Assembly (NCBI GenBank): GCA_028286645.1
Contig: JAQBRF010000002.1
Coordinates: forward strand, 186,518 to 250,517
DNA length: 64,000 nt
From: Candidatus Nomurabacteria bacterium
Lineage (GTDB): Bacteria; Patescibacteriota; Minisyncoccia; Phycocordibacterales; UBA5272
Direction of reading: 5' to 3'
The stretch's first letter is position 1; each line of letters starts with the position of its first letter. The position numbers were made by a program, and so were the translations under genes. Under the pieces are notes generated by a model. It saw only the letters and a program-made list of their open reading frames with translations, did no database searches and was not told the DNA's origin. This document shows positions 3,965 to 22,744 of this stretch, in pieces.

Positions 3965-5500
3965 ATGCACTTAAGAACTCTTATTTTTATAATCGGAGTT
4001 TTAGCAGGGGTCATAATAGGAGAGTCTTCATCATTCGGAAGTGAAATAGCAGTACTTGCTATTTTAATTTCTATAATTCAAGGGGCGATCTATTTCTTTG
4101 AAAGGAAGAATGTAAAGACTGAAAAACTTTATCTGTGTTTGTTTACAATTCTTATTTCGATCGGATTATTTACTGGAATAATTAGAGAACAATTATCAGT
4201 ACAAAAAGATAACTTCACGTGCGCCGCTTGCACCTTCACCGCAAAAGTTATATCAACCCCAGAAGTAAAAGATACATATCAAGTTTTTAATATTCATCCT
4301 GAAGTGAATAATAAAAATATTTATGATGTGGAAGTAAAGACGCCTTTGTATCCCAAATATAAAGCAGGGGACAGGCTTCAGATTTCTGGGAAGGTGAGCG
4401 AACCGAAAGCCATTCTTCCACACAATGATTCAAACTCATTTGATTATGTTTCTTATTTAAAAACAAAAAATGTTGGAAGTGAAATGTTTTATCCGAAAGT
4501 TGAAATATTGCCTAGTGACGGTATAACATTTCAAGAAAGATTAATTTCTTTAAAAGAAAGTCTTATCAGTAAATTAGAAACTTATGTAAGTGCTCCGGCA
4601 TCGTCGCTTGCTTCTGGAATGTTGTTCGGAAAGTCATCAATGCCAATTGAGCTTACAAATACATTTCGTATAGCCGGACTTTCCCACATTATTGTTTTGT
4701 CAGGTTTTAATATCGCAGTTGTGATATCTTTTATACTTTTTATATTCGCATTTATTCCGCTTACTCTTCGTATTATATTTGCCGGGAGTGCAGTTGTTAT
4801 TTTCATACTAGCTGTTGGCGGAGAGGCAAGCGTAGTGCGCGCAACGATCATGGCATTCATCGGACTTTTAGCAACTTTAATCGGTAAAGAGTATGTGGCT
4901 AAACAAGCCCTCATCATCTCATTACTTTTAATAGTAATGTATGAGCCATACTCATTGCTCCATGACGTGTCGCTTCATCTTTCGTTTTTAGCAACTGCTG
5001 GGATAATTTATTTGTCTCCGGTTTTTCAAATTATTTTTAATAAAATAAAAAGCGAATCATTTAGGTCTCTTATCACCACAACTTTGTCAGCGTACATTGC
5101 GACTCTTCCATATATATTATTTACATTCGGGAAGATCTCCATGTATGCACTTTTATCAAATGTTATTGCATTGCCGCTTGTCCCCGCCACTATGCTGCTT
5201 TCATTTCTCGTAATAGTTTCGTCATATATTTGGGGAGGGTTTGGAGTATTGTTTGGATTTGTTACGACGATTTTAGCAAACGTTATTATCTGGGTGGCGC
5301 AAGTAACTGAAAAGATGCCATACTCGTATATTCCGCTTCAAATAAATTTTTATAGCATGATCATGCTATATATTCTGATTGTATTGACGCTTACTTACGT
5401 TTATAAAAAGAAAAATAATAAAGAAAATGAAACGTTACAAACAGAAAACGTACTCATAAGTGGGGTAATTGCTTACTCGACAGTAGAAAATAGAGAGTAG
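3965..5500 (+). CDS. comEC: ComEC/Rec2 competence protein, membrane channel part (no MBL domain in this ORF)
   Basis: Polytopic membrane protein with ComEC signature FRIAGLSHIIVLSGFNIAVV; N-terminal OB-like region. Confidence 0.6.
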   Translation: MHLRTLIFIIGVLAGVIIGESSSFGSEIAVLAILISIIQGAIYFFERKNVKTEKLYLCLFTILISIGLFTGIIREQLSVQKDNFTCAACTFTAKVISTPEVKDTYQVFNIHPEVNNKNIYDVEVKTPLYPKYKAGDRLQISGKVSEPKAILPHNDSNSFDYVSYLKTKNVGSEMFYPKVEILPSDGITFQERLISLKESLISKLETYVSAPASSLASGMLFGKSSMPIELTNTFRIAGLSHIIVLSGFNIAVVISFILFIFAFIPLTLRIIFAGSAVVIFILAVGGEASVVRATIMAFIGLLATLIGKEYVAKQALIISLLLIVMYEPYSLLHDVSLHLSFLATAGIIYLSPVFQIIFNKIKSESFRSLITTTLSAYIATLPYILFTFGKISMYALLSNVIALPLVPATMLLSFLVIVSSYIWGGFGVLFGFVTTILANVIIWVAQVTEKMPYSYIPLQINFYSMIMLYILIVLTLTYVYKKKNNKENETLQTENVLISGVIAYSTVENRE

Positions 5501-6169: not shown

Positions 6170-7057
6170 ATGCAAAGTCTCAAAGAAAATATAAATTCAT
6201 TCAATCGCGAATATGGAAAAGTGTTCTTTGTTGTTATTTGCGGTGTGGGAATAATATTAACTTCTATTTTTATATATGTAACGAGTACGCCGCAAAAGTT
6301 AAAAGTTTCATTCTTAGATATTGGACAAGGTGATGCTATTTTAATTCAAACGCCAAGCGGACAAAAGTTACTAATTGATGGAGGTCCAACTAATATTATT
6401 TTAGATCGGATTTATTCTCAGATTAGTTTCTTTGATCACACTATGGATGTAATGGTGTCTACTCATCCGGACGCGGATCATGTTACTGGGCTGATTCCAA
6501 TTTTAGAAAAGTTCAATGTAAATAAAATAATCACTTCATCTGTTCCAGGTGACACCGGGATATTTAAAGAGTTGGAAAGCAGCATTCAAAATGAGAACAG
6601 TGAAACACATATTGGAAATGCGGGAGACATATTAGATTTTCATGATGGAGTAACCGCCACGATACTTCATCCATATAATGATGAAAAATTTAAAGATACA
6701 AATGAAGGGTCAGTGACACTTTTATTAAAGTATGGAGATGAAACATTTTTATTAGACGGGGATTTGCCTACAACGAAAGAGCCTCTTATTCTTACTTCGC
6801 TTTTACCGCATAACATCACTGTATATAAAGCGGGTCATCATGGAAGCAAGTATTCAAGTGGCGAGCAATTACTCACATATATAAAACCAGAGTATTCAGT
6901 AATAAGCGCTGGAAAAGATAATAAGTATGGACACCCAAATCTGGAAGCCATGGAAAGATTGCAAAAGTATTCAAAAGAAATAATATCAACTATTGATCGC
7001 GGAACTATCTCATTTATAACTGATGGAAAGATTATAGAAGTAAATACGACTAAATAG
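6170..7057 (+). CDS. metallo-beta-lactamase-fold protein, ComEC C-terminal-domain-like, separately encoded
   Basis: N-terminal TM anchor; LDIGQGDAILIQTPSGQKLLIDGGP ... STHPDADHVTGL (variant HxHxDH). Confidence 0.55.
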   Translation: MQSLKENINSFNREYGKVFFVVICGVGIILTSIFIYVTSTPQKLKVSFLDIGQGDAILIQTPSGQKLLIDGGPTNIILDRIYSQISFFDHTMDVMVSTHPDADHVTGLIPILEKFNVNKIITSSVPGDTGIFKELESSIQNENSETHIGNAGDILDFHDGVTATILHPYNDEKFKDTNEGSVTLLLKYGDETFLLDGDLPTTKEPLILTSLLPHNITVYKAGHHGSKYSSGEQLLTYIKPEYSVISAGKDNKYGHPNLEAMERLQKYSKEIISTIDRGTISFITDGKIIEVNTTK

Positions 7058-9197: not shown

Positions 9198-9626
9198 ATG
9201 CCTACCGTTAATCAACTAATTAAGAAGCCAAGAACAAGAATAATAAAGAAGTCTCGTTCTATTGCAATGAGCCGTGGTTTTAACGCGATAAAAAATAAAC
9301 CAAACTTCTATAACTCTCCATTTAAAAGAGGTGTATGTCTAAAGGTGACCACCACAACTCCTAAGAAGCCGAACTCAGCTCTTAGAAAGATTGCAAGAGT
9401 TCGCCTTACAAATGGAATGGAAGTGACTGCATATATTCCAGGAATCGGACATAAGTTACAAGAGCACTCTGTGGTCATTATCCGAGGAGGACGTGTGAAG
9501 GACTTGGCTGGTGTGCGTTATCACATTGTGCGCGGAAGATTAGATGCAACGCCGGTAGACAAGAGGATGCAAGGAAGATCTCTATACGGAGCTAAGCGTC
9601 CAAAGGCAGCAGCTGCGAAGAAATAA
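9198..9626 (+). CDS. rpsL: 30S ribosomal protein S12 (with ~15-aa insertion relative to E. coli)
   Basis: [12 protein letters not shown]...[12 protein letters not shown]...[24 protein letters not shown] motifs. Confidence 0.95.
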
Positions 9627-9686
9627 TTATTAAAAACTAAGTGGAGTATCTGAAACTTTCAGAGAACACATTACACTAACAAAGAT

Positions 9687-10157
9687 ATGAGAAGAAAAGT
9701 TAAAAATAGAAATATTGTAGGTCCAGATGGAAAATATGACTCAGCCAAAGTAGCTAAGTTTATTAACTATGTGATGATGGGGGGGAAGAAAAATGCTGCA
9801 CGAGAAATCGTTTATGGAGCTTTTGATATTATTAAGGAAAAGACAAAGACCGAAAATCCTATTGAAGTGTTTGAAGCAGCTCTTCGAAACGCAGGACCTG
9901 TAACTGAAGTGCGCTCACGACGTATCGGTGGAGCAAACTATCAGGTGCCGAGAGAGGTTCGAGAAGAAAGGCGTTTTCTTTTAGCACTAAGATGGATCTT
10001 AGAGGCAGCGAACGCTAAGAAAGGAAAGGCTATGCGATTTAAATTAGCCGATGAGCTTATGGCTGCGGCAAATAACGAAGGAGCTGCGGTAAAGAAGAAG
10101 GAAGACACTCACAGAATGGCGGAGTCAAACAAGGCTTTCGCCCATTTTGCTTGGTAA
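9687..10157 (+). CDS. rpsG: 30S ribosomal protein S7
   Basis: 156 aa; GGANYQVP...RR motif; position after rpsL. Confidence 0.95.
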
Positions 10158-10334
10158 TTTTCTCAAGAAAATGGCGCGTTACTTTGTCGTGCTAAGAATT
10201 TTATTCGGTCAACTTACTAATTGTACGTTTCTCTCATAAAATTCTTGCACTTCGCGTACTGCATCCATTTTCTTGAGAAAATAATTGATGAGACTTTTAT
10301 CTAAAATACAAGCTTTAAAATTCATATTTAAAGA

Positions 10335-10363
10335 TTGTTTACATCAGGTATTTATGTTAAAGT
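10335..10363 (+). promoter_or_regulatory. candidate sigma70-type promoter TTGTTT-17-TAAAGT upstream of fusA
   Basis: Hexamer spacing only. Confidence 0.25.
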
Positions 10364-10511
10364 ATTAACTACCTGAAAACGGGTTTTATTTTTCCCTAAA
10401 CCACCAAAGGCGGCTGGGCGACACTATTAAAAGTGTTTAGCTTAAAAATTCAAAATCCTTTCGAATTTGTATTCACTAATGACTATTAACCAATAACTAT
10501 TAACTATCTTT

Positions 10512-12656
10512 ATGGCTCGCGACTATCCACTAAACAAAACACGTAACTTCGGAGTTATCGCTCACATCGATGCTGGTAAAACTACCACAACGGAGCGTAT
10601 TTTGTTCTATACCGGAGTTTCACATAAGATCGGTGAAGTTCACGAAGGGGAAACTGTTATGGATTGGATGGAGCAAGAGCGAGAGCGCGGTATCACTATT
10701 ACTTCTGCTGCTACTACTGCATTCTGGAATCCAACATATATGACAAAAGATGACACTTCTCTTAAGTGTCGTTTCAATATTATCGACACTCCTGGACACA
10801 TCGACTTCACTATTGAAGTGAAGCGTTCACTTCGCGTGCTTGACGGTGCTGTGGTCGTGTTTGACGGAGTAGCGGGAGTAGAGCCACAATCAGAAACTAA
10901 CTGGAGATACGCGTCTGACGGAAAAGTGCCGAGAATTTGCTATATCAATAAACTAGACCGAATGGGAGCGAACTTCGATAAGGCGTTTGATTCTATATTA
11001 GACCGTCTTTCAAAGAAGGCGGTGCGAATGCATATGCCTATTGGAACTGAAGAAAATTTCAATGGGATTATTGATCTTTTAATAATGAAAGAAGTAAAAT
11101 TCTCTGGAGACAAAGGAAAAGATGTAGACTTTACTGAAATTCCTGCAGAGTTATTAGAAGAAGCAAAGAAGAGGCGTGCGGAAATGGTGGAAAAGATCGT
11201 TGAAAGCGATGAAAACATGATGACTGCATTTCTGGAAGGAAAGGAATTTTCTGTAGTAGAACTAAAAGCTGCTATAAGAAAGGCAACGATAGCGAATGAA
11301 TTATTCCCGGTATTTTGCGGATCATCATTAAAGAATCGCGGAGTGCAATTAGTACTCGACGCGGTTATTGATTATCTTCCATCACCACTTGATATTCCTG
11401 CACCAAAAGGAATCGACCCAAATACAGGAGAGGCAATAGAAGTGGAAGTATCAGACACGGCTCCGCTTGCCGCTCTTGCTTTCAAGCTTCAATCAGATCC
11501 ATTCGTGGGACAGCTTACATTCTTCAGAGTTTACGCTGGAACAATTGAAGCGGGATCATATATTTATAACTCGACAAAAGATAAAAAAGAAAGAGTAAGT
11601 CGTATCCTTCGAATGCATGCAAATGAAAGAGAAGAAGTGAAAGCGGTATATGCTGGAGAAATCGCAGCTGCTGTAGGACTTAAAGATACTGTTACATCAG
11701 ACACTATGTGTACTGAAGAGCATCCAGTAATCCTTGAAAGAATTGTTATTCCTGAATCTGTTATTTCTATGCGTGTGGAACCGAAGACAAAAGCTGACCA
11801 AGAAAAAATGGGTCTTGCGCTTTCTCGTTTGGCTATCGAAGATCCTACTTTCCGCGTGGCATCAGATTCTGAAACAGGGGAGACTATTATCTCAGGAATG
11901 GGAGAACTCCATCTTGATATCATTGTCGACCGAATGAAAAGAGAATTTAATGTAGAAGCAAATACAGGCAAGCCTCAGGTGGCGTATAAGGAAACTATTC
12001 TTGGGTCAGCTGCAGGAGAGGGCAAATATATCAAACAGTCTGGCGGTCGCGGTCAGTACGGACATGTGAAAATAAATATTAAGCCAATTGACTATAATAT
12101 TCCCACAGAAGATCTTCCAAAGAACACGAAGAGATATGACGGATTTGAATTTGTTAACTCTCTAAAAGGAGGCTCAATTCCATCGGAATTCGTTCCTGCT
12201 GTAGAAAAGGGCTTGAGAGAATCAATGGATCGCGGAACACTTGCCGGATTTAAAATGGTGGATGTATCGTGCGAGGTATATGACGGATCTTTCCATGAAG
12301 TGGACTCCTCAGAAATCGCCTTCAAAATCGCAGCCGGTATGGCGCTAGCTGACGCAGTTGGCAAAGCCAAGCCTGTGATCCTAGAACCTATAATGAAAGT
12401 GGAGATAGTCACACCAGACAAGTTTTATGGAGATATAACAGGGAATCTTTCATCAAAGCGCGGTCAGATTGAAGGAATGGATGAAAGAGGACAGGACAAA
12501 GTAGTGCGCGCTATGGTGCCGCTATCGGAAATGTTTGGATATGTAAATAACTTAAGATCCATGACAGAAGGACGTGCTTCATATACAATGGAATTTGGAA
12601 AGTATGATGTGGTGCCACAAAATATCGCAAAGGACATTGCAGAAAATAAGAAGTAA
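10512..12656 (+). CDS. fusA: elongation factor G
   Basis: 714 aa; GVIAHIDAGKTTTTERILFYTG, DTPGHIDF, full EF-G architecture. Confidence 0.95.
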   Translation: MARDYPLNKTRNFGVIAHIDAGKTTTTERILFYTGVSHKIGEVHEGETVMDWMEQERERGITITSAATTAFWNPTYMTKDDTSLKCRFNIIDTPGHIDFTIEVKRSLRVLDGAVVVFDGVAGVEPQSETNWRYASDGKVPRICYINKLDRMGANFDKAFDSILDRLSKKAVRMHMPIGTEENFNGIIDLLIMKEVKFSGDKGKDVDFTEIPAELLEEAKKRRAEMVEKIVESDENMMTAFLEGKEFSVVELKAAIRKATIANELFPVFCGSSLKNRGVQLVLDAVIDYLPSPLDIPAPKGIDPNTGEAIEVEVSDTAPLAALAFKLQSDPFVGQLTFFRVYAGTIEAGSYIYNSTKDKKERVSRILRMHANEREEVKAVYAGEIAAAVGLKDTVTSDTMCTEEHPVILERIVIPESVISMRVEPKTKADQEKMGLALSRLAIEDPTFRVASDSETGETIISGMGELHLDIIVDRMKREFNVEANTGKPQVAYKETILGSAAGEGKYIKQSGGRGQYGHVKINIKPIDYNIPTEDLPKNTKRYDGFEFVNSLKGGSIPSEFVPAVEKGLRESMDRGTLAGFKMVDVSCEVYDGSFHEVDSSEIAFKIAAGMALADAVGKAKPVILEPIMKVEIVTPDKFYGDITGNLSSKRGQIEGMDERGQDKVVRAMVPLSEMFGYVNNLRSMTEGRASYTMEFGKYDVVPQNIAKDIAENKK

Positions 12657-12713
12657 ATTATTATTTACGACTATATTTTCTTAATCCCGCGACAAAAATA
12701 CTTTTTTGGAGTC

Positions 12714-12905
12714 GTGGTCGCAGAGAACAAAGCGTTAGTAAAAAAAGGACGTCTCTCAAAAGAGACTCTCGAAGAAAATAAGGATAAAATAATACAACAT
12801 TTGTCTAAGGACTATGAAATTAATCAAAGAACAGGAGTGGGGGGAGAGATTGGCATGCAAGTAGCGAAGGCAAGATATGAAGCAACCCTCGGCTCTATTG
12901 ACTAA
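12714..12905 (+). CDS. small hypothetical ORF (63 aa)
   Basis: ORF only. Confidence 0.15.
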   Translation: MVAENKALVKKGRLSKETLEENKDKIIQHLSKDYEINQRTGVGGEIGMQVAKARYEATLGSID

Positions 12906-13020
12906 ATATAAAGGTTCAAAAAAAGATGCTACTAGCGTCCTTTTTGCTCTATGTTGATAACTTCTACAAAGTGTGGTGTAGAAAGAGTATAATTCGTTCA
13001 TTATAAATAAATTTAAAATA

Positions 13021-13950
13021 ATGAACAAGAAGATCTACACAGTTAACTTTGCACTAATTCTCGCCTCTTTATACACGTTTGCTCTATATATAATATCTGC
13101 AGACGGAAATATTTTCACAAAGATTTCCCCTAACTTTTATGATTGTGACTGCGGTGGGTATACTTATTTTAATTATTTAACAATATCTATCGTGGGTCTT
13201 ATTGCTTTTATCGTTACTTCCTCTCTTTTTATTAGGAAGTACGGCTCTATTTCTGCGGACGATGAATATGTTTCTTTCTTAAATTACATAGGCAAGGCAT
13301 TATTTTGGGTATTTGCCGCTTATATATTATATGCACCAATAACTTATTTAGTGTCAGGAGGCCCATTCTTATCTTTCATCATTAATATGATCTGGCAGGT
13401 GGTAATTCTTTTCTTATCTGGGTATTTCTTATATGCACGAGGAGCATGGAGAAGTCACAGCGCTATGGTGGTTATTTGGGCAGTAATGGCTGTGCTTGCT
13501 ATTGTTTCTTTCGTCGGAGGATTCTTTGCTTACGGAACTCCAAGTGAACAGTATAAAGTATCAGCCGATCAAGAAACCTTAATTAGATTAGACAGCGCCT
13601 CGTATGATGTGGATGATTTTATTAGTTACAATAAAGTTTTCCCAACGATTGACCAACTAATGGAAGCAACCTCAACTCAAACACCGAAAGACAAGTTTGA
13701 AAATCCTGTTACTCACCAGCAATTTACTCTTACAGAATATAAAGATGAAACTCCTAACCAATATGGAGATATATATGGCCACTATGAATTATGCTCAACC
13801 GTATTCTTAGGATATGAAAAGGCTTATGATCTTAGTAAAAATTCTAGTTTCTTGAAGTCTCGCCAAAAGCCAGGAAAATATTGTGTTACGAGAAACTATT
13901 CAATATATAACGATACAACTAGCGGTAACTCACAAAGTGGAATGGAATAG
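13021..13950 (+). CDS. hypothetical polytopic membrane protein with C-terminal soluble domain
   Basis: 6+ hydrophobic helices in first 180 aa. Confidence 0.35.
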   Translation: MNKKIYTVNFALILASLYTFALYIISADGNIFTKISPNFYDCDCGGYTYFNYLTISIVGLIAFIVTSSLFIRKYGSISADDEYVSFLNYIGKALFWVFAAYILYAPITYLVSGGPFLSFIINMIWQVVILFLSGYFLYARGAWRSHSAMVVIWAVMAVLAIVSFVGGFFAYGTPSEQYKVSADQETLIRLDSASYDVDDFISYNKVFPTIDQLMEATSTQTPKDKFENPVTHQQFTLTEYKDETPNQYGDIYGHYELCSTVFLGYEKAYDLSKNSSFLKSRQKPGKYCVTRNYSIYNDTTSGNSQSGME

Positions 13951-14006
13951 TTGGATTTCTTAATTAAGCCTAATGGGTATAAACTTAGATGTAAGTTATT
14001 ATTAAT

Positions 14007-16328
14007 ATGCTTAGCATGAAAACTACTATCTATTTAAAGCCCTTATTTATTGTTTCCCTGGTTCTTGGTATAACTTCATCTACTTTTGCTCAAGTGGCTG
14101 ATGAAAATCCAAACGGAACTTCGTGCGCCATCATTACGTCAAATACAGGTTATGGGTCACGAGATAATTCTTATAATAGTAACGTTTCTATTCTTCAGGA
14201 CTTTTTAAGTTCCAATGGATATTTAAATTCGCAGCCGACTGGCTTCTATGGGCGCCTTACACTTAATGCTGTTTCTAATTTTCAAAGAGCAAATGGCATT
14301 TCGCCCACAGGTTATGTCGGATCTATAACGCGAGCGAGAATCCAAGCTATTGATTGTAATGGAGGAACCATACCCACACCCACTCCAACGCCTACAAATC
14401 TTCCATACGGATGCACTTCTATTATTGGGTATAGTCCAATTACTGGAGCAAGATGTGATAGCGGTACCACAAATCCTAATCCAGATTCTAATACTCAATC
14501 GCAAGTAGTGGCTTTGGCCATATCCAGGCTTGCTACAAAGCTAAATGTTTATTCCTCAAGTATTAGTGTAATAAATGTAGAAAGAATTACCTGGCCGAAT
14601 GGATGTTTGGGGATTGATTATGGAGCAGGATCAATTTGTACGCAGTCATTTGTTAATGGATATAAAATAACTCTTAATTATGGAGGGCAAACGTACGAAT
14701 ATCATGCAAATAGCAGTGGAAGTCAGATTGTAGAATTTATTAATAATGTTATTAGTAATGTGAGCTTCTCAGCAACTCCTCAAACAGGAGCTTCGCCTCT
14801 TGCTGTTAACTTTATTACTTCCGGAATTCCTTATACCGCAAGCTCTCCTTATTTGATTGATTTTGGAGATGGATTTTCTGGGACATCATGGGGGGTTGGT
14901 TTTGAAAATGGATCAATGCTAAATATGATTCACACATATTCTTCCCCAGGAACTTACACTGCTAAACTTCTAAAAAACACTTGCCCTCAAGGAGCTCAAT
15001 GTTTCGCCGGACCTCAAACAATTGGCACATTAGTGGTAACAGTAAATGGAGCGGCAACTTCAGGAGGTCTATCGGTTTCTCCTTTATCTGGAAGTGCTCC
15101 GCTTACCGTTTCAGTTTCAGGCACATCTGTGGGCGGCAGTTATTCAATTGATTTCGGAGATAATACTACTCCGTTGGTAAGCCATGCTACGTGTTTATAT
15201 GGAATGAATTGTTCTGGGGCTATATCTATTAATCAAACTCACACATATCAATTACCTGGTACATACACCCTAACCTTCAACGATATTTTGTCCAGTTATC
15301 CTTACTACACAAGTTATACAAAAACTATTACTGTTTCTGGAGGGTCGTCATCTAACTTACTAACAGCCATACCAACAACAGGATCTTCCCCGCTATTGGT
15401 TACCTTAAGTGTTCCGTCAGTTATACAAGGTAAGATGAACGCCTGCGTATATACACAAGGATTTTATGGAGCATCCGGGCAAGGAATAGATGTTAACTGG
15501 GGGGACGGAACTTTTTCTCCGGTGTTTTCTGATAGCAAGAGAGGTCAAAGCTGTTCGGATGAATTAAAGACTCACACATATACAACTCCTGGAACCTATA
15601 CAATAACTATGCGAAGCTGGCACCCAGGCCCGACAGATCAAGCGGTGATTGACTGGCAAGGGACTTCAACCATTGTCGTGGGTGGGACCCGGGCAGCAAA
15701 TGAAACATTTATAGCTACTCCGACTTCCGGCAATGCTCCATTAAATGTTTCATATCGTATAGATAACGCAGATGCCTCGCTTTATGCTTATTCGATTTCA
15801 TATGGGGATGGCACCTCTCCATCCCTCATAGCGCCTCCTGCGGGGTCAGGTAATTGCACTGGTTTCGGTAATGGCTGTTTCATTTCGGATTCCCATATAT
15901 ATTCACAACCGGGGACGTATACCGCGACTCTTTATAGAACAATCAATGTTGTATGTGCGGGAGGAATGGTGTGTAATGCTGGGGTGCGCGAAACTGTTAA
16001 AACAGCGACTATCACTGTGGGAGCTGCTTCTTCTAATAGCGTAAGTCTGTCTGCGTATCCTACATCAGGCAATGCGCCACTTGGTGTAGGCTTTTCCGCT
16101 TCTTACCTTCCCGCTAGCAGCTATTTTGTAATTAAATTCGGCGATGGAAATCAGTTAAGTTTATCTGGAAGCAACCAACAGGTATGTACCGCATCATATC
16201 CTGTAACATGTACAAGTTTTAATGGCTTTAATATTAGTCATGTATATAATACTCGAGGCATGTATACCGCAGAGGTGCTTACATCAGAAAATGTTTCTCT
16301 TGCGACAACGAACATAACAGTTAATTAG
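14007..16328 (+). CDS. secreted surface protein: signal peptide, Cys-bracketed peptidoglycan-binding (PG_binding_1-like) module, then ~5 PKD-like repeats
   Basis: SILQDFLSSNGYLNSQPTGFYGRLTLNAVSNFQRANGISPTGYVG; repeated ...TGxAPLxVxF...DFGDG / WGDGT / YGDGT PKD signatures. Confidence 0.55.
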   Translation: MLSMKTTIYLKPLFIVSLVLGITSSTFAQVADENPNGTSCAIITSNTGYGSRDNSYNSNVSILQDFLSSNGYLNSQPTGFYGRLTLNAVSNFQRANGISPTGYVGSITRARIQAIDCNGGTIPTPTPTPTNLPYGCTSIIGYSPITGARCDSGTTNPNPDSNTQSQVVALAISRLATKLNVYSSSISVINVERITWPNGCLGIDYGAGSICTQSFVNGYKITLNYGGQTYEYHANSSGSQIVEFINNVISNVSFSATPQTGASPLAVNFITSGIPYTASSPYLIDFGDGFSGTSWGVGFENGSMLNMIHTYSSPGTYTAKLLKNTCPQGAQCFAGPQTIGTLVVTVNGAATSGGLSVSPLSGSAPLTVSVSGTSVGGSYSIDFGDNTTPLVSHATCLYGMNCSGAISINQTHTYQLPGTYTLTFNDILSSYPYYTSYTKTITVSGGSSSNLLTAIPTTGSSPLLVTLSVPSVIQGKMNACVYTQGFYGASGQGIDVNWGDGTFSPVFSDSKRGQSCSDELKTHTYTTPGTYTITMRSWHPGPTDQAVIDWQGTSTIVVGGTRAANETFIATPTSGNAPLNVSYRIDNADASLYAYSISYGDGTSPSLIAPPAGSGNCTGFGNGCFISDSHIYSQPGTYTATLYRTINVVCAGGMVCNAGVRETVKTATITVGAASSNSVSLSAYPTSGNAPLGVGFSASYLPASSYFVIKFGDGNQLSLSGSNQQVCTASYPVTCTSFNGFNISHVYNTRGMYTAEVLTSENVSLATTNITVN

Positions 16329-16387
16329 CCTATAATTAATCTTAGTTATCCCTAAACGCATACAGTCTCATTTGGTATCATTTAAAT

Positions 16388-17503
16388 ATGAAAAAACTTA
16401 TTTTGGCACTTATGCTAACTTCCGGAATTTTGTATTCATACGCAGATACTTGTACCGATATTTCTATAAACCTTTCAAAAAAAGGAAATACAAACAGCCA
16501 AGTCCTTATCCTTCAAAACTTTCTTTTTAATAAAGGCTTATTAAATGCAAAACCGAATGGGTATTTCGGTCCTCAAACATTTACAGCAGTAAAACTATAT
16601 CAGAAGTCAAAAGGCATTACGCCAACAGGAGACGTGGCAGCGCTTACGAGATCATCTATAAAAAATGAAAGCTGCAATGGAACCACACCTGCTGTTTCGT
16701 CTCCCACAACATCGACAATGGCCACTACAACTTCACAAGTTATGGTTACGCCTTTAGTGCCTTCGGTTATTTCCATAAAAGTTTCTCCTTCTGTTATAAA
16801 TACTATTGATTACGCCACATTTATCTCCGGAGGAAAAATGGATACGCCGTTAACGATACGAGGATCAGGATTTAGCTCTTCTACAAATCAAGTTATTTTA
16901 AAATTAACTGGATCAAACAGAACCTTTGATTTAGGAAATTTCCCGTCCGTAAATGGGACGACAACTATTGTATCCTCAAGTTTTATAACAAACACATATC
17001 CCTGTGGGACGAGCTGCACCGAGCTTCTTCCGGTTGGCAATTATAGTGTGATTGTGAAAAATGAGGGAGGGGAAAGCAATGCGGGAGGAATAATAGTAAG
17101 AAATATAATCGCAACTGGCACATCAGGAAGTATTTCTACAGCAATAAAGCAGCAAAGCACTCAGGCAAAGCTTGCCACCTTTACAATAGGGACCAATACA
17201 TCGATTTCTCTTGAAGAGATGAACATCTCTCTAACTTCTTCACTTTCAAGCGGAGCAGGGATTTCAAATTTAAAATTAAAAGATGAATTATCCGGTGAAG
17301 TAATAGGAGGGTCATCATCATTTGATTTAGGCAAGAGAATGATAATTGAAAATCAATCAAAGATTTATTCTTTATATGGCGATATTGATGTACCCGTATC
17401 TGTCGGCGTAACTATTAACGCAGTCTTAAAAGTAAAAGAATTTATCGGAAATAATTTTATATATATAACAATTCCAACTGTTTTTGATACTATTTCTGGG
17501 TAA
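16388..17503 (+). CDS. secreted surface protein with same N-terminal PG-binding module, Thr-rich linker, Ig-like domains
   Basis: Signal peptide; VLILQNFLFNKGLLNAKPNGYFGPQTFTAVKLYQKSKGITPTGDV. Confidence 0.5.
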   Translation: MKKLILALMLTSGILYSYADTCTDISINLSKKGNTNSQVLILQNFLFNKGLLNAKPNGYFGPQTFTAVKLYQKSKGITPTGDVAALTRSSIKNESCNGTTPAVSSPTTSTMATTTSQVMVTPLVPSVISIKVSPSVINTIDYATFISGGKMDTPLTIRGSGFSSSTNQVILKLTGSNRTFDLGNFPSVNGTTTIVSSSFITNTYPCGTSCTELLPVGNYSVIVKNEGGESNAGGIIVRNIIATGTSGSISTAIKQQSTQAKLATFTIGTNTSISLEEMNISLTSSLSSGAGISNLKLKDELSGEVIGGSSSFDLGKRMIIENQSKIYSLYGDIDVPVSVGVTINAVLKVKEFIGNNFIYITIPTVFDTISG

Positions 17504-17525
17504 AAATGATATCCCCCAAAGGCCC

Positions 17526-17553
17526 TTGCATAAATTTTTACACGTTGTAGTAT
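17526..17553 (+). promoter_or_regulatory. candidate promoter TTGCAT-16-TAGTAT at left edge of GC-rich island
   Basis: Near-consensus hexamers in AT-rich DNA just before the G/C-rich leader. Confidence 0.35.
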
Positions 17554-17623
17554 AGGGGGGTCAAACCGCCTTGCCCCCATCCGGGGGTAAAGGAGAGGGG
17601 AGGCAACCTTCAGGAGACTCAAA

Positions 17624-18070
17624 ATGAAGAAGTTCGTTCTCGCGGCTCTCGCAGCCGCAATGTTGCTCACGGGTCCCATGGTGAATGCGGCGCCCCCGGA
17701 AGTCGGCGTGGCCAAAGCTCAGACGACCGAAGCGGTGCTCAAGGCCAAGCCGACGTCCGTCGTGACCGAGATCATGGTGCTCCAGGCGCCGAGCGCGCGC
17801 GAAATCGCGACCAGGCACGCCGACGCGGTCGCAGGATCGACGTATCTCGCGACCCAGGACATGATCGGCTTCCAGGAAATCGCCGCGAACCAGTCGAGCT
17901 CGGCCCGCGTGTTCACGTCGACATCGTCCGCGGGCCTGGTCGCCTTCGACGGCGCAATGGTGAACACCTCGCGCTTCGTGCCGACGCACCCCGCCCTTTA
18001 CGGTGAAATGGCATCCGCGTTCACGCACGGCGTCGCGCCGCCCGTCGTCACCGCCTTGCCGGCGATCTAA
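17624..18070 (+). CDS. secreted hypothetical protein (signal peptide MKKFVLAALAAAMLLTGPMVNAAP), high-GC
   Basis: Strong SD (AAAGGAGAGGGGAGG...CAGGAGACTCAAAATG) 8 nt upstream; terminator follows. Confidence 0.45.
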   Translation: MKKFVLAALAAAMLLTGPMVNAAPPEVGVAKAQTTEAVLKAKPTSVVTEIMVLQAPSAREIATRHADAVAGSTYLATQDMIGFQEIAANQSSSARVFTSTSSAGLVAFDGAMVNTSRFVPTHPALYGEMASAFTHGVAPPVVTALPAI

Positions 18071-18110
18071 CAAGCCGGCCGCTCCGATTCGCCGTCCTGG
18101 CGAATGCACT

Positions 18111-18140
18111 GCCCACCTCCACGGTGGGTTTTTTATTTTT
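18111..18140 (+). terminator. rho-independent terminator (CCCACC-TCCA-CGGTGGG + T-run)
   Basis: Read directly. Confidence 0.7.
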
Positions 18141-18235
18141 ATCTATTTATTTTTTAAGTAATAATTAATTATTTGTGACATAAAATCTTGTGACATGGTT
18201 CATGGATTTTTGATATTTAACCATTATTTAAAATA

Positions 18236-18264
18236 TTGACCAGTAGTAATAAGTATTGTAGGAT
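18236..18264 (+). promoter_or_regulatory. candidate promoter TTGACC-17-TAGGAT upstream of bactofilin-like gene
   Basis: Hexamer spacing; in AT-rich spacer that also carries TTGTGACAT x2. Confidence 0.3.
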
Positions 18265-18344
18265 GAAAAGTAATCTGTTCCAATTATTTCGAATTACCCA
18301 TGGAACGGACTTCCTTATCGTAATCACAATGGAGAGCCAGAATC

Positions 18345-19124
18345 ATGTTCAACAAAGACGCATTGTTCGGCCAGAGAGGTGACACCACCGATGCAAACGT
18401 GACCGGTATGCCGGGGTCCCACCCGCACCCTCGCCCCGTAAGTCCGGCCTTGCCGGCAGATCCGTCGCCCGCCCCTTCAGCAAACCTCGCGGACACTCCT
18501 TCAATGCTTCTCAACGAGGCTGCGTCGGAGTCTGAGGGGGCGGTAGCTCGTGCACGCTCTCGTGCTCCAGCGCCTTCTGATTCTGTGGTTGTGAATCGGG
18601 CGCACCGGCTGGCCGCAGAGCCTGTACGCGTCGAAGACTCCTCTGAAACTACGTCGACAATCGCAAAAAGCTGGAATATCAAAGGAGTGGGCTCCGCCAT
18701 CACAGGCGTCGGCACTCTCATCGTCGAGGGGGAGGTGGAGAGCGAGATCGAATGTCGCGTCATCAGGATTCTCCCCGGCGGCCTTGTCACCGGCCCGGTG
18801 ACAGCGGAAGTGGCCGAAGTCTATGGCACCGTTATAGGGGAGCTCACGGCGACCAAGCGCCTGGTGCTCTTCTCTACAGGCAACATTTCCGGACGAATCC
18901 GTTACGGGAAAATCCACGTCGAAGAAGGTGCGGAAATTTCGGGAGACGTCAACACTCTCGCGGCTGTGCATGCAGCGGTTGCCGAAGTAGCGGCAGACGA
19001 AATGGCCGCTTCCAGACTCGCGGCGGTCGCAAGCTCAAGCACCCAGCCTTCCACATCCGGAGATGACTCAAACGTGGCAGAATCGGAAGAACATGCCGAA
19101 GATGCCGGCGGATCGACTTCCTAG
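18345..19124 (+). CDS. bactofilin-domain cytoskeletal protein with Pro-rich N-terminus and acidic C-terminal tail
   Basis: Beta-helical repeat pattern IKGVGSAITGVGTLIVEGEVESEIECRVIRILPGGLVTGPVTAEVAEVYGTVIGELTATKRLVLFSTGNISGRIRYGKIHVEEGAEISGDV resembles BacM/CcmA-type bactofilins; SD GGAGAG 11 nt upstream. Confidence 0.6.
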   Translation: MFNKDALFGQRGDTTDANVTGMPGSHPHPRPVSPALPADPSPAPSANLADTPSMLLNEAASESEGAVARARSRAPAPSDSVVVNRAHRLAAEPVRVEDSSETTSTIAKSWNIKGVGSAITGVGTLIVEGEVESEIECRVIRILPGGLVTGPVTAEVAEVYGTVIGELTATKRLVLFSTGNISGRIRYGKIHVEEGAEISGDVNTLAAVHAAVAEVAADEMAASRLAAVASSSTQPSTSGDDSNVAESEEHAEDAGGSTS

Positions 19125-19172
19125 CCGAAATAAACCGGCGGGATCACAAATAAGGACGCTTTACCGCTTCAC

Positions 19173-19199
19173 GCAGCTCTTCGGGGCTGCATTTTTTTA
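19173..19199 (+). terminator. rho-independent terminator (GCAGCTCTTCGGGGCTGC + T7)
   Basis: Read directly. Confidence 0.7.
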
Positions 19200-19236
19200 T
19201 CTCTACACAAAAGTTTTGTAAAACTTGGTATAGGGT

Positions 19237-20388
19237 TTATTTTATTTCTACAAACTTCCCATTTTTAATAGTTTTAATTACAAACTGAGAGTCTTTAATT
19301 CCATGAATATCATTAAATTGGATATTTGGGACTGTTACTCCTGGAATATTAGTTTTTTCTACGGCTGTTTTAATATCAATTCCATTCTCGTAATGTTTCC
19401 TTAATGCATTTATGGCTACATTGGTAGCGTCGTATGCGTTAGTCACACTTGGCCCTGAAGGCTCAGTTCCATATTTAGAAATAAAGTTTGCTTTGAATTC
19501 TTCATACCCACCAGAAGCTTCAGGATATGTATAGATAACCCCGTTCATCGTTGAGCTAAATTGTTTTACAAGTTCTGCATCCTGTACATCTGCTGAGCTA
19601 AATAGCTGCACCGTAAGACCTAAGTCGTGTGCTTGCTTTAGAAATTTTCCTTTTTTTTCTGGGTTAGGAAAACTCGCGTATATGCCATCTATATTCATAT
19701 TTTTTAACTCAGCTATTTCTGTCCTAAAGTCTATATAGTTTGTAGGAAGTGTATATTCCTTTATTACTTTTATATTATGTGCATCGGCTTCATCTTTAAA
19801 AATCGACATAAGGATAACACCAAAAGGATCTTGGTCGTGCATTATAACTATATTTCTCTTATTGTTTTGATTCATGTAACTCTCCATCGCTTGTACCTCT
19901 TTCCTTTGAGGGAAATATGTCGAAAATATGTAATCAATTGGCAGTTTGCCATATATAACAGCTTCTATTGCAGCAGAAGGAGTGATTGAAACTATTTTAT
20001 TGTTATTTATCACAGGATAACCGCTCTGGTAAGTATCACTCCATGTGGGGCCAATTATTATCTCTGCTTTATCTGAGTCAATTAATTTGCTTACAGCATT
20101 TACTGTTCCTTTTTGAGAACATTCTGTGTCTTCGGTGATGAGTTCTAAGGGGTGTCCATTTATACCGCCTGATTTATTCGCTTCCTCAATGGCCAAAGTA
20201 ATGGACTTAAGTTCGTCCTCGCCCCACGAAGAGCAGTAGTTAGTGAGTGCAAGTGCCCCCCCAACTTTTACGGTGTCTCCATTTTCCTTGTGCGCCCCAA
20301 GTATGGAAGGGCGTTGCCCTAGGAAGAAGCTTATTAATAAAATAATAAATACTACGCTTAAAAAGCCCAATAAAATGTTTTTGGTCAT
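19237..20388 (-). CDS. periplasmic substrate-binding protein, type-I PBP fold (branched-chain amino acid / LivJ-like)
   Basis: N-terminal TM/signal anchor; VKVGGALALTNYCSSWGEDELKSITLAIEEANKSGGINGHPLELITEDT... ; no adjacent permease/ATPase. Confidence 0.5.
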   Translation of the reverse strand: MTKNILLGFLSVVFIILLISFFLGQRPSILGAHKENGDTVKVGGALALTNYCSSWGEDELKSITLAIEEANKSGGINGHPLELITEDTECSQKGTVNAVSKLIDSDKAEIIIGPTWSDTYQSGYPVINNNKIVSITPSAAIEAVIYGKLPIDYIFSTYFPQRKEVQAMESYMNQNNKRNIVIMHDQDPFGVILMSIFKDEADAHNIKVIKEYTLPTNYIDFRTEIAELKNMNIDGIYASFPNPEKKGKFLKQAHDLGLTVQLFSSADVQDAELVKQFSSTMNGVIYTYPEASGGYEEFKANFISKYGTEPSGPSVTNAYDATNVAINALRKHYENGIDIKTAVEKTNIPGVTVPNIQFNDIHGIKDSQFVIKTIKNGKFVEIK

Positions 20389-20545
20389 GTTTTTAAGAAG
20401 AAAGCTAGTTAATAATTACTATCTTAGCTTAAATCTATTTTGACTGAATTGATATTTTATTGTGTAGTATTTTACCCCGAAGAATGAAAATCCTTTGATA
20501 GCAAAGGTTTTTAACGGCAGAAAGTTGTAGGTATAAGACCTACAA

Positions 20546-21325
20546 TTATTCAGAAGTCTCCCAAATAATATTAAAAAGGATAGTAATCATGTTGGCTAAT
20601 GCTTCTGATTCTATCCACATGGCCATCTGCTCTTTATAAGAAACTATAATCACATTATTACCGAAAGCATCTATATTTGGCTCAAAGGTAAGGTTTTTAT
20701 TGGTCCGCTCAATAACATTTGATACTTTGTACCCCAGTTGCCCTTCCTTCCCGCATATACCTTTTCCAGATTTTCCTTTTTTTTCAAATGTTTTGCTCCA
20801 TTTAAGCCAATATTCCTGGGACAAATGCTTAAAATCTGGATTAAATTGAGCACCAAGGAAACAAATGAATTCGCCCCCCTCTAACTCTTTCTGCTCTTTG
20901 TCGTACATATCTCTAATCTGATCTAGTCCATAATAGTATTTTATTTTCATCAGTCTAGAGCTAACTCTTGGAAGAGAAAGAAGAGACTCTATAACCTTTG
21001 ACATATCTTGAGAAGCAGAATCTATTCTTTTTCTCTCTTGCTCTACTAAATCTCTTAAAGTGTTTGGATGTGCGGCTATAAACTTTGAGCTACTCCTTCC
21101 TGTGGGCTGAATTAAACCTTTATTTATAAGCCGGTCGCATTCTGTATAGAGCTGTTGGCGATTGATTCCTGTAATGGTAGATATTTGTAGAATGGAAAGA
21201 ATCCCAGAAGAGAGCAGGGTGCTGTAAACAACGATCTGATTGTCAGTTAGTCCTAGTTCCTTAAGAAAGAGAGTGACTTCTTTAGTGGGGGTTATCTTTT
21301 TAGGTAAAACTACATTTCTTTTCAT
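20546..21325 (-). CDS. TrmB-family HTH transcriptional regulator (second paralog)
   Basis: wHTH TLFLKELGLTDNQIVVYSTLL...ITGINRQQLYTECDRLINKGLIQ. Confidence 0.4.
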   Translation of the reverse strand: MKRNVVLPKKITPTKEVTLFLKELGLTDNQIVVYSTLLSSGILSILQISTITGINRQQLYTECDRLINKGLIQPTGRSSSKFIAAHPNTLRDLVEQERKRIDSASQDMSKVIESLLSLPRVSSRLMKIKYYYGLDQIRDMYDKEQKELEGGEFICFLGAQFNPDFKHLSQEYWLKWSKTFEKKGKSGKGICGKEGQLGYKVSNVIERTNKNLTFEPNIDAFGNNVIIVSYKEQMAMWIESEALANMITILFNIIWETSE

Positions 21326-21383
21326 TAAATTAGTATAGCTTCTTTGTCTTTATTAAATAAGAGATAAGACCCCAAAATAAAAA

Positions 21384-21412
21384 TTGCATAATTTATCCTT
21401 ATATGATAAGAT
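21384..21412 (+). promoter_or_regulatory. candidate promoter TTGCAT-17-TAAGAT for tuf
   Basis: Hexamer spacing only. Confidence 0.35.
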
Positions 21413-21550
21413 TATTTCTACTCACTTGGCATTTCCTTAACTTGCTTGGCTAAGGAGTACTGCAGTTAATTATTATCAGTTTCTTTATTTATATAACTTA
21501 ATAGTCCAATATCTCCGTCAAAGGCGGATGACAAGACCAAACAAAAACAT

Positions 21551-22744
21551 ATGGCAGAAACATTTAATCGCGACAAACCACACGTAAACGTAGGAACTAT
21601 CGGTCACGTAGACCATGGAAAGACTACTCTTACAGCAGCTATTCTTAACGTGCTTCACCTTAAGGATGCAACTGTAAAGATGAAAGATGTTAATGATATC
21701 GACAAGGCGCCCGAAGAAAAGGCCCGAGGTATTACTATTTCTCTATCTCACAGTGAATACTGGACAGAAAATCGTCACTACGCTCACATTGATGCGCCAG
21801 GACATGCTGACTATATTAAGAACATGATTACCGGTGCCGCACAGATGGACGGAGCTATTCTAGTAGTAGCCGCAACTGATGGACCAATGCCACAAACTCG
21901 CGAGCACATCCTCCTAGCCAAGCAGGTTGGAGTGCCTCGAATCGTAGTATTCATGAATAAGTGCGATATGGTAGAAGATGCAGAAATGCTTGATCTCGTT
22001 GAAGAAGAAATTCGCGAGCTTCTTACAAAGCAGGGTTACGACGGAGCAAATACTCCAGTTATCCGAGGTTCAGGCCTTAAAGCTCTTGAAGCAAAGGACA
22101 TTAATGATCCTTGGGCAGTGAAGATTGTTGAGCTTATGACTGCGCTTGATACTTGGATTCCAGTTCCAGAGCGTGATATTACAAAGCCATTCCTTATGCC
22201 TGTAGAAGACATCTTCTCAATCGAAGGACGTGGAACTGTGGTAACAGGACGTATTGAAAGAGGGACAATTAAACTTAACGAAGAAATTGAAATCGTGGGA
22301 CTTAAAGATACTGCAAAGACTGTGGTAACTGGTATTGAAATGTTCAATAAGCAACTATCTGAAGGAGTGGCCGGAGACAACGCCGGAATCCTTATCAGAG
22401 GTCTTAAGAAAGAAGATATTATGCGAGGACAAGTTCTTGCAAAGCCTGGAAGCGTGAAGCCTCATACAGATTTCGAAGCAGAAGTATACATTCTTAAGAA
22501 GGATGAAGGAGGAAGACACACTCCATTCTTAAATGGTTATAAGCCACAATTCTATGTACGCACAACGGACGTAACAGGAGAAGTGACTCTTGCACCAGGA
22601 ACAGAAATGGTTATGCCAGGAGATACTGTTAAGTTTACAGTTAAGCTGCTTGCCCCAATCGCTCTTGAGGAACAAGGACACTTTGCTATCCGCGAAGGAG
22701 GTAAAACTGTAGGAGCCGGAGTCGTTACAAAGATAATTGCCTAA
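21551..22744 (+). CDS. tuf: elongation factor Tu
   Basis: 397 aa; [29 protein letters not shown] motifs. Confidence 0.95.

Follow-up and report, generated by a model that had tools for sequence, protein, structure and literature searches.

Two small GC-rich cassettes of probable foreign origin, one encoding a bactofilin, in a Nomurabacteria chromosome

We analyzed a 64,000-nucleotide stretch of the genome of a Candidatus Nomurabacteria bacterium (contig JAQBRF010000002.1, positions 186,518 to 250,517; "the window"). The organism belongs to the Patescibacteria/Parcubacteria group in NCBI's taxonomy, and the mean GC content of the window is 39%. The locus of interest has two short GC-rich segments, which we call cassettes A and B, with an AT-rich spacer between them. 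Each cassette has one open reading frame (ORF): ORF1, which encodes a small protein that is predicted to be secreted, and ORF2, which encodes a bactofilin. The segments and their genes are as follows (coordinates are those of the window, and GC3 is the GC content at third codon positions).

17555 to 18128, plus strand: GC-rich cassette A from the segmentation, GC 0.66, with a 5' leader, ORF1, and a terminator stem
17624 to 18070, plus strand: ORF1, 148 amino acids, GC3 0.85, with the Sec-type signal peptide MKKFVLAALAAAMLLTGPMVNA (cut before AP)
18129 to 18296, no strand: AT-rich spacer from the segmentation, 168 bp, GC 0.20, of host intergenic character, with several promoter-like sites
18297 to 19190, plus strand: GC-rich cassette B from the segmentation, GC 0.59, with a leader, ORF2, and a terminator stem
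18345 to 19124, plus strand: ORF2, a 259-amino-acid bactofilin, GC3 0.62, deposited as MDB5260017.1 ("cell shape determination protein CcmA")

We consider it very probable that this is a Nomurabacteria chromosome with two small cassettes that originated outside of the Candidate Phyla Radiation (CPR). The evidence is the composition of the DNA, the relatives of ORF2, and the agreement of two assemblies.

We set the boundaries by maximum-likelihood change-point segmentation. The model with the best Bayesian information criterion had five segments: host DNA up to 17554 (GC 0.36), cassette A, the spacer, cassette B, and host DNA from 19191 (GC 0.33). The outer shifts in GC are thus at 17555 and 19190, so an earlier note, which was made from the sequence and described an abrupt shift to GC-rich DNA across 17555-19200, had accurate outer coordinates. 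That note described one GC-rich island, and the DNA is indeed GC-rich, but it is not a single unit: there are two cassettes, parted by a spacer of 20% GC. In 200-bp windows, the GC content rises from 0.30-0.39 in the host DNA to 0.55-0.69 across 17500-18100, falls to 0.285 at 18100-18299, goes back up to 0.55-0.65 across 18300-19200, and is 0.28-0.39 beyond. The note had proposed windowed GC and tetranucleotide scores as a check, and both set the region apart. In 450-bp windows, the rest of the window has a GC content of 0.388 +/- 0.038 and never exceeds 0.496, and the tetranucleotide distance of the region from same-size chunks of host DNA corresponds to z = 6.8. All of the switches in composition are in non-coding DNA and no gene is truncated, which bears out the claim that the junctions coincide with gene boundaries.

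This shift in GC is not an effect of amino acid composition, because the GC3 of ORF1 and ORF2 is far above that of the other ORFs that were called in the window (0.22-0.41). The GC content at codon positions 1, 2, and 3 is 0.62, 0.52, and 0.85 for ORF1 and 0.65, 0.54, and 0.62 for ORF2. At four-fold degenerate sites, it is 0.87 for ORF1, 0.62 for ORF2, and 0.27 for the host. Deviation from the host in GC, GC3, and oligonucleotides is a criterion for horizontally acquired DNA, and the region deviates in all three. As had been noticed, there are also long antisense ORFs that overlap the genes (182, 168, and 156 amino acids). In high-GC DNA, a true reading frame is expected to have GC3 > GC1 > GC2. 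ORF1 has this order and the 182-amino-acid antisense ORF has the mirror pattern, which identifies the plus-strand frame as the real one and the antisense ORFs as shadows.

Bactofilins are a well-studied family. The product of ORF2 is identical to MDB5260017.1, whose gene is on a contig of 251,735 bp, and it can be divided into four parts.

18345 to 18368, plus strand: amino acids 1-8, MFNKDALF, an N-terminus that resembles the membrane-targeting sequence of bactofilins (closest match, MFNKPALF of Rhodocyclales)
18369 to 18656, plus strand: amino acids 9-104, a linker that is rich in Ala, Pro, and Ser and is predicted to be disordered (predicted local distance difference test, or pLDDT, < 50)
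18657 to 18950, plus strand: amino acids 105-202, the bactofilin beta-helix domain (PF04519 positions 2-97 of 98)
18957 to 19121, plus strand: amino acids 205-259, a predicted helix (amino acids 205-231) and then an acidic Ser/Ala-rich tail that is disordered in the model (isoelectric point of the segment, 4.1)

ORF2 is a true bactofilin because of its match to Pfam and its predicted fold. The match to PF04519 (DUF583) scores 60.3 bits (cut-off 27.9, E = 2.2e-16), so the bactofilin signature that had been read between a Pro-rich N-terminus and an acidic tail is confirmed as this domain. The only match among PDB sequences was BacA from Caulobacter crescentus (2N3D; phmmer E = 1.5e-8). An AlphaFold2 (AF2) model, which was built on an alignment of four sequences, has stacked beta-strands across about amino acids 117-204, with a pLDDT of 88-97. 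The top matches in Foldseek were 2N3D, with a target-normalised template modelling (TM) score of 0.80 and a root-mean-square deviation (rmsd) of 1.6 A, and 6RIB (TM 0.77, rmsd 1.7 A). The membrane-targeting peptide of bactofilins has been defined by experiment: it is MFSKQAKS in BacA, the global consensus is MFSKKKK, and the key residues are M1, F2, K4, and K7 (PMC12448750). ORF2 begins with MFNKDALFGQRG. M1, F2, and K4 are present; position 7 has L in place of K, and the first basic residue after it is R11.

To what group does this bactofilin belong? Our first protein search with ORF2 scored only the 8,000 best word-sharing candidates, and we suspect that low-complexity tails crowded out relatives. 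Among those candidates, the closest was a Methylobacillus protein with 36% identity. In a scan of GTDB, with one genome per species and an alignment of the domain, we found 73 loci, on contigs with GC contents of 0.42-0.72. The 27 best loci are from Rhodocyclales, Methylophilaceae, or unclassified Proteobacteria (41-53% identity), and almost all of the others are from Alphaproteobacteria. None of the 73 loci is a CPR bactofilin. The earlier note had said that the claim of foreign origin fails if the closest homologs are from CPR bacteria with similar GC, and no such homologs were found.

We also compared the N-termini of proteins that we extracted from 30 of the 73 loci. The starts are clade-specific: MFNKPxLFPK in Rhodocyclales, MLNKQGLF in Methylophilaceae, and MFRRKK or MFSRKK in most Alphaproteobacteria. 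ORF2, with MFNKDALFGQ, follows the Rhodocyclales form (the shared motif is MFNK(P/D)ALF). It also has both of the indel states of the beta clade, by which we mean Rhodocyclales and Methylophilaceae. In a neighbour-joining tree with 200 bootstrap replicates, ORF2 was sister to the beta clade in 185 replicates, and the sampled beta clade was monophyletic in all 200. In other words, for ORF2, and only for ORF2, the nearest relatives are outside of the host's lineage, which is the phylogenetic incongruence expected of a transferred gene. We considered a phage or plasmid vector for ORF2, but there were no matches from phages or IMG/VR, and the one match from plasmids is distant (40.6%, Comamonas). 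JGI metagenomes did not yield a closer relative either (the match is only 31%).

ORF1, by comparison, is an orphan. Its N-terminus has MKK, then the hydrophobic region FVLAALAAAMLL (mean Kyte-Doolittle hydropathy 2.76), and then TGPMVNA/A, where the slash is the cleavage site. There is a V at -3 and an A at -1, the signal peptide has no Cys (and no lipobox Cys follows it), and there is no further hydrophobic segment. We judged the signal peptide by rule-based checks alone; by these, ORF1 is predicted to be a Sec-exported protein with a textbook signal peptide, in agreement with the previous description of the first gene as encoding a secreted protein. The mature protein would have about 126 amino acids and is rich in Ala, Val, Thr, and Ser.

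A word-indexed search of 5.8 billion proteins with ORF1 found only ORF1 itself. An exhaustive HMMER search of 1.84 billion representatives gave one match, to a 4,644-amino-acid RTX/DUF5801 adhesin from Pelagibius. We do not think that this is a homolog, because a single alignment of about 30 bits is repeated over 12 near-identical repeats, which inflates the summed score. ORF1 itself gives no match to DUF5801. We found nothing credible for ORF1 in Pfam, NCBIfam, PHROGs, PADLOC, PDB sequences, plasmids, JGI metagenomes, or IMG/VR (the sole listing was a PHROGs match with E = 0.32), and a single-sequence AF2 model had a pLDDT of 41 and was unusable. Judging by its composition, the donor of ORF1 would have had a GC content of roughly 65-70%. 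ORF1 is present in the protein collection only as a gene call from Logan, without NCBI sources; the bactofilin and a flanking gene have NCBI entries. The annotation of the deposited metagenome-assembled genome (MAG) may have missed ORF1.

Each cassette has its own candidate promoter, Shine-Dalgarno (SD) site, and terminator.

17526 to 17553, plus strand: candidate ORF1 promoter, TTGCAT-16-TAGTAT, in AT-rich DNA that abuts the GC step; about 7/12 matches, not reported by the consensus scan
17612 to 17616, plus strand: SD site of ORF1, AGGAG, 7 nt upstream of the ATG
18111 to 18139, plus strand: intrinsic terminator after ORF1, with a stem of 7 bp (5 of them GC pairs) and then a T-run (scan match 18111-18129)
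18236 to 18264, plus strand: best promoter-like site for ORF2, TTGACC-17-TAGGAT; 9/12 matches in the consensus scan
18331 to 18334, plus strand: SD site of ORF2, GGAG within GGAGAG, 10 nt upstream of the ATG
19173 to 19198, plus strand: intrinsic terminator after ORF2, GCAGCTC-TTCG-GGGCTGC and then a T-run (scan match 19173-19190)

The SD sites are unlike the host's. We checked 50 host genes, and only 10% of them had any GGAG, GAGG, or AGGA. The mean energy of the duplex with the anti-SD sequence was -1.1 kcal/mol, which is weaker than for the random control (-2.4 kcal/mol). In many of these genes, which are from across the window, the start follows a very AT-rich stretch (for example, "aaatat" or "ttaaat"). 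Because SD-like motifs are rarer than in random sequence and AT-rich stretches precede the starts, we suggest that initiation is SD-independent throughout the host's genome. The host core genes had been reported to lack SD sequences, and the 50 genes are indeed essentially without signal.

Some of the other reported signals needed revision. Both cassette genes were said to have strong SD sequences, and ORF2 does have an SD site within the quoted GGAGAG. ORF1 also has an SD site, but it is not the motif that was quoted, AAAGGAGAGGGGAGG. This purine run is at 17589-17603 and ends 20 nt upstream of ORF1's ATG, a greater distance than a canonical SD allows, so it is probably not the ribosome-binding site; the proximal AGGAG is plausible instead. 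Two host-style promoters were also reported, of which TTGACC-17-TAGGAT passes the scan, while TTGCAT-16-TAGTAT, at 17526, fails it. The clean terminators after both genes were both found by our scan, and there is a second 7-bp hairpin, at 18087-18105, ahead of the terminator of ORF1. We rejected the terminators as markers of the donor because the host uses similar terminators (hairpins followed by T-runs). A structured RNA in the leader of ORF1 was also rejected (the z-score of the fold is -1.27, which is not significant), and Rfam gave nothing above threshold in 17400-19300. Within the spacer, the 9-nt sequence TTGTGACAT occurs twice as an exact direct repeat (18173-18181 and 18188-18196, 15 nt apart). 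The two copies lie 40-60 nt ahead of the -35 element in ORF2's best promoter candidate, and they may be a putative binding site for a regulator.

If the cassettes are foreign, how many transfers were there, and from what? We lean slightly toward two separate acquisitions into one permissive gap between convergent genes, because the two genes differ in GC at synonymous sites, the spacer of 168 bp has just 20% GC, each gene has its own signals, and the genes are not linked in relatives of ORF2. The difference at four-fold sites (0.87 vs. 0.62) is significant (P = 1.5e-7, Fisher exact test). The spacer is at or below the GC content of host intergenic DNA (0.28-0.40), which is far below what would be expected within a fragment of 60-66% GC, as required if ORF1, the spacer, and ORF2 came as one fragment of about 1.6 kb from one GC-rich donor or mobile element. 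Also, tblastn found no counterpart of ORF1 in any of the 73 loci with relatives of the bactofilin, whose neighbours are unrelated housekeeping genes, and phages and IMG/VR have no relatives of either protein (the distant plasmid match is to ORF2 only). Still, the genes are adjacent and co-oriented and have the same architecture (SD leader, ORF, and hairpin terminator), and a model with just three segments accounts for most of the composition signal by a single block, 17555-19190. So a single acquisition is a real but distinctly less probable alternative. Either way, the two genes do not form the cytoskeletal module that the earlier note had suggested: they appear to be transcribed separately, their synonymous GC differs, and ORF1 is not linked to bactofilins. 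For ORF2, we favour a donor from a divergent and unsampled GC-rich lineage that is allied to the beta clade, as its sequence suggests. It might instead be an old transfer of an ordinary bactofilin from Rhodocyclales or Methylophilaceae that evolved quickly and was partly ameliorated in the CPR host. This would account for the contrast between the beta orthologs, which are very uniform (81% identity in the domain between the two orders), and ORF2, which has just 44-49% identity to any of them and a terminal branch of 0.37 (the other branches printed are at most 0.07). It would also account for the retention of only 36 of the 58 columns that are invariant in the beta clade and for a GC3 below the range of Rhodocyclales (0.72-0.92). 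But of the 23 universally invariant columns, ORF2 has kept 19, and its amino acids have not drifted toward those with AT-rich codons (FYMINK is 0.22 vs. 0.24 and GARP is 0.28 vs. 0.30), and these observations are why we prefer the unsampled donor. Furthermore, the GC at ORF2's four-fold sites is far from the host's 0.27 and within the native range of Methylophilaceae (0.37-0.73), and ORF2 lies outside of the sampled beta clade instead of being nested within it. We think that rapid evolution of an ordinary beta bactofilin is unlikely.

The other alternative is that there was no transfer, and that the assembly misjoined reads of some GC-rich organism from the same metagenome into the CPR contig. 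The change in composition is extreme and abrupt, and the sequence was seen in only one sample, as might be expected for a chimera. However, a Logan contig from run SRR13312974 has 6,624 bp that are identical to the window at 13827-20450, from the gene with PKD and PG-binding domains to the end of the gene for the solute-binding protein, through both flanking genes and all four switches in composition. Because this independent assembly reproduces 6.6 kb across every junction exactly, a chimera is unlikely. Since there is host-like DNA of 20% GC between the GC-rich blocks, a chimera would require four misjoins, not two. All four switches are non-coding, and the genes, leaders, and terminators to either side of them are complete. 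Exact matches between the junctions or the spacer and the rest of the window are at most 14 nt long, so there is no junction repeat of 15 nt or more that could have seeded a misjoin in the assembly graph. Given these observations and the relatives of the bactofilin, we consider a chimera to be very improbable; of the two options that the earlier note left standing, horizontal acquisition and chimeric assembly, acquisition is favoured.

Two cassettes of foreign origin thus remain our interpretation. They are flanked by two genes that are typical of the host.

16388 to 17503, plus strand: left host flanking gene, a 371-amino-acid exported protein with a PG_binding_1 domain, GC3 0.28
19237 to 20388, minus strand: right host flanking gene, a 383-amino-acid Peripla_BP_6 solute-binding protein, GC3 0.31, with many CPR homologs

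The stop codon of the left gene is 51 nt upstream of the GC step. The right gene is convergent with the cassettes, and the GC-rich block begins 46 bp past its stop codon. The right gene has 77 homologs, and all of the named ones are from CPR bacteria (Pacebacteria, Taylorbacteria, and similar groups); the best is 58% identical. A GTDB scan with this protein for synteny in siblings found nothing. In the contigs of its closest homologs, the pair of genes for a TrmB-family regulator and the binding protein is conserved, and the side that would face the cassettes is not syntenic. In the closest sibling (58% identity for the flanking gene), the 188-213 bp downstream have a GC content of 0.38-0.40, and then the contig ends, which is weak evidence that the cassettes are absent from this sibling.

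Several points weigh against our interpretation. ORF1 has no homolog and its origin is read from composition alone. For ORF2, the best identities to any potential donor are about 50% for the domain and about 36% for the whole protein, and the donor clade was deduced from the sister-group position of ORF2, whose branch is long (0.37), in a neighbour-joining tree. Retrieval from GTDB was driven by a single peptide pattern from betaproteobacterial sequences, which biased the taxon sample for the tree, and divergent CPR bactofilins could have escaped. The adjacency, shared orientation, and similar construction of ORF1 and ORF2 fit a single acquisition equally well. In the closest sibling, the flanking gene has just 58% identity and the contig stops 213 bp beyond it. 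The Logan contig is from one run, which may be the MAG's own, so it is independent of the assembler but perhaps not of the reads. The 3' end of the host's 16S rRNA is outside of the window. Finally, nothing marks the mechanism of insertion. We found no tRNA genes in the window, no meaningful direct repeats flanking the region, no integrase or transposase in Pfam scans of the flanking genes and other non-core genes, and no pairs of integron attC core sites (RYYYAAC ... GTTRRRY, 45-140 nt apart) on either strand at three boundaries. Lacking an integrase or transposase, a tRNA target, and flanking repeats, the region shows none of the hallmarks of a classical genomic island or mobile element, and lacking attC and intI, it shows none of those of an integron gene cassette.

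A possible history of the locus is as follows. The two cassettes would have lodged in the gap between the two convergent host genes, within the 8.9 kb of non-core genes that lie between fusA and tuf. With each ORF would have come a donor-type 5' leader that has an SD site, and also a hairpin terminator. Upstream of each cassette, sigma-70-like promoter candidates are present only in the abutting AT-rich DNA of host type, from which the genes might be expressed. The gene in cassette B would descend from a divergent lineage allied to the betaproteobacterial clade (Rhodocyclales and Methylophilaceae). Its product would polymerise without nucleotide, via the beta-helix core, into non-polar filaments; the MFNK... 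peptide, at the end of a disordered linker of about 95 residues, would tether it to the membrane's inner face; and it may act as a scaffold for client proteins. Cassette A would encode a small Sec-exported orphan from a donor of about 65-70% GC. The two genes would most likely have arrived in two events, and they could plausibly have come in through the host's ComEC channel for DNA uptake.

The window as a whole includes rpsL, fusA, tuf, a cluster of ribosomal proteins, secY, and recA, and the identities that had been assigned to rpsL, fusA, tuf, secY, and recA are correct. The earlier note was also right to take the source for a CPR bacterium with a tiny genome. The rpsL-rpsG-fusA-tuf cluster is usually contiguous, and here (9198-22744) it is interrupted by about 8.9 kb of non-core genes, which lie between the end of fusA (12656) and the start of tuf (21551). 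Besides the GC-rich region, this interval has a 309-amino-acid protein with no match in Pfam, two exported PG_binding_1 proteins (one of which also has PKD domains), and the Peripla_BP_6 and TrmB genes. The interval resembles a variable zone of insertion within a core operon. PG_binding_1 domains are N-terminal in three separate proteins (33186-34565, 14007-16328, and 16388-17503), and the N-termini of the proteins at 14007 and 16388 are visibly hydrophobic. The trio hints at an expanded family of surface proteins that bind the cell wall, perhaps for attachment to partner cells. Pairs of genes for a TrmB-family regulator and a Peripla_BP_6 protein recur in related CPR contigs, sometimes in tandem (contig L002, 197-4456; contig L006, 6751-9152 and 13530-16361). 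In the window and in these two contigs, we saw no gene for an ABC permease or ATPase next to the pair, which may be a lineage-specific pairing of sensor and regulator.

Farther away, the ComEC-type competence channel (Competence and DUF4131 domains; 3965-5500) is near a separate gene with a metallo-beta-lactamase fold (6170-7057). A 904-amino-acid protein (42470-45184) has weak matches to TraG-D_C and TrwB (a type IV coupling protein), so it is possibly an ATPase related to conjugation or to type IV secretion. The 23S rRNA gene starts at 62010 (the window covers 62010-64000 of it), and the preceding 62 kb have no 16S rRNA and no tRNA, so the rRNA genes of the host appear to be unlinked.

What is the significance of the two cassettes? 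They would be a well-bounded transfer between phyla into a streamlined CPR genome, and one of the acquired genes encodes a cytoskeletal scaffold. Horizontal transfer into Patescibacteria was already documented, and the bactofilin was already annotated in the public record. The GC-rich genes beside an AT-rich promoter region illustrate how foreign ORFs may plug into expression signals of the host's type, and genes with SD sites in a genome that avoids them are a natural probe of translation initiation in CPR bacteria. The signal of a donor allied to the Betaproteobacteria also suggests a hypothesis about which organisms live with this Nomurabacteria bacterium. A bolder idea, which we consider a long shot, is that the cassettes are host-to-symbiont transfers (with the Nomurabacteria bacterium as the symbiont) that record its physical partner, a GC-rich proteobacterium allied to Rhodocyclales or Methylophilaceae, which are groups from wastewater and freshwater. 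If so, an episymbiont has captured its partner's membrane-scaffolding bactofilin and a secreted protein while keeping donor-type translation signals. Sequence data would then point to the host of a Parcubacteria lineage, a host for which there is otherwise no clue, and the genes would be a natural test of SD-led mRNAs on the SD-less ribosome of a CPR bacterium.

Transfers into Patescibacteria have been catalogued, including rare transfers from Pseudomonadota (PMC12455944); in the papers that we could search, we found no mention of bactofilins in CPR bacteria and none of the sample accession. Like the published genomic islands of Patescibacteria, our cassettes are foreign DNA in a streamlined CPR genome that is flagged by deviations in GC and tetranucleotides, and Pseudomonadota are among the documented donor phyla (PMC12455944). 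Unlike those islands, which are 2.7-45 kb (PMC12455944), ours are two single-gene cassettes that total 1.6 kb, with no mobility genes, a sharper contrast in GC, and no donor that can be identified among sampled genomes. The betaproteobacterial bactofilins (from Methyloversatilis, Azoarcus, Thauera, Pseudothauera, Zoogloeaceae, Methylobacillus, and Methylovorus) are the closest sequences to ORF2 that we found (43-53% identity for the best segment from tblastn), and they share with it their indel states and a clade-specific form of the N-terminus (MFNKPALFPK or MLNKQGLF). They differ from ORF2 in their genomic neighbours, and their domains are 73-100% identical to each other, which leaves ORF2, at 44-49%, outside of the group.

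Among bactofilins more broadly, ORF2 is unusual for its location in a CPR genome, for the L in place of K7 in the targeting peptide, and for the first winding of its beta-helix (amino acids 105-116), which is divergent and predicted with low confidence. Its linker, at about 95 residues, is also long, given that whole betaproteobacterial relatives with clean starts have just 183-213 amino acids. Otherwise, ORF2 resembles BacA (2N3D) and the bactofilin of Thermus thermophilus (6RIB): it matches the full length of the domain, the predicted beta-helix superposes on theirs with an rmsd of 1.6-1.7 A, and it has the family's tripartite layout, with an M-F-x-K peptide and a disordered linker, then the core, and then a tail (PMC12448750).

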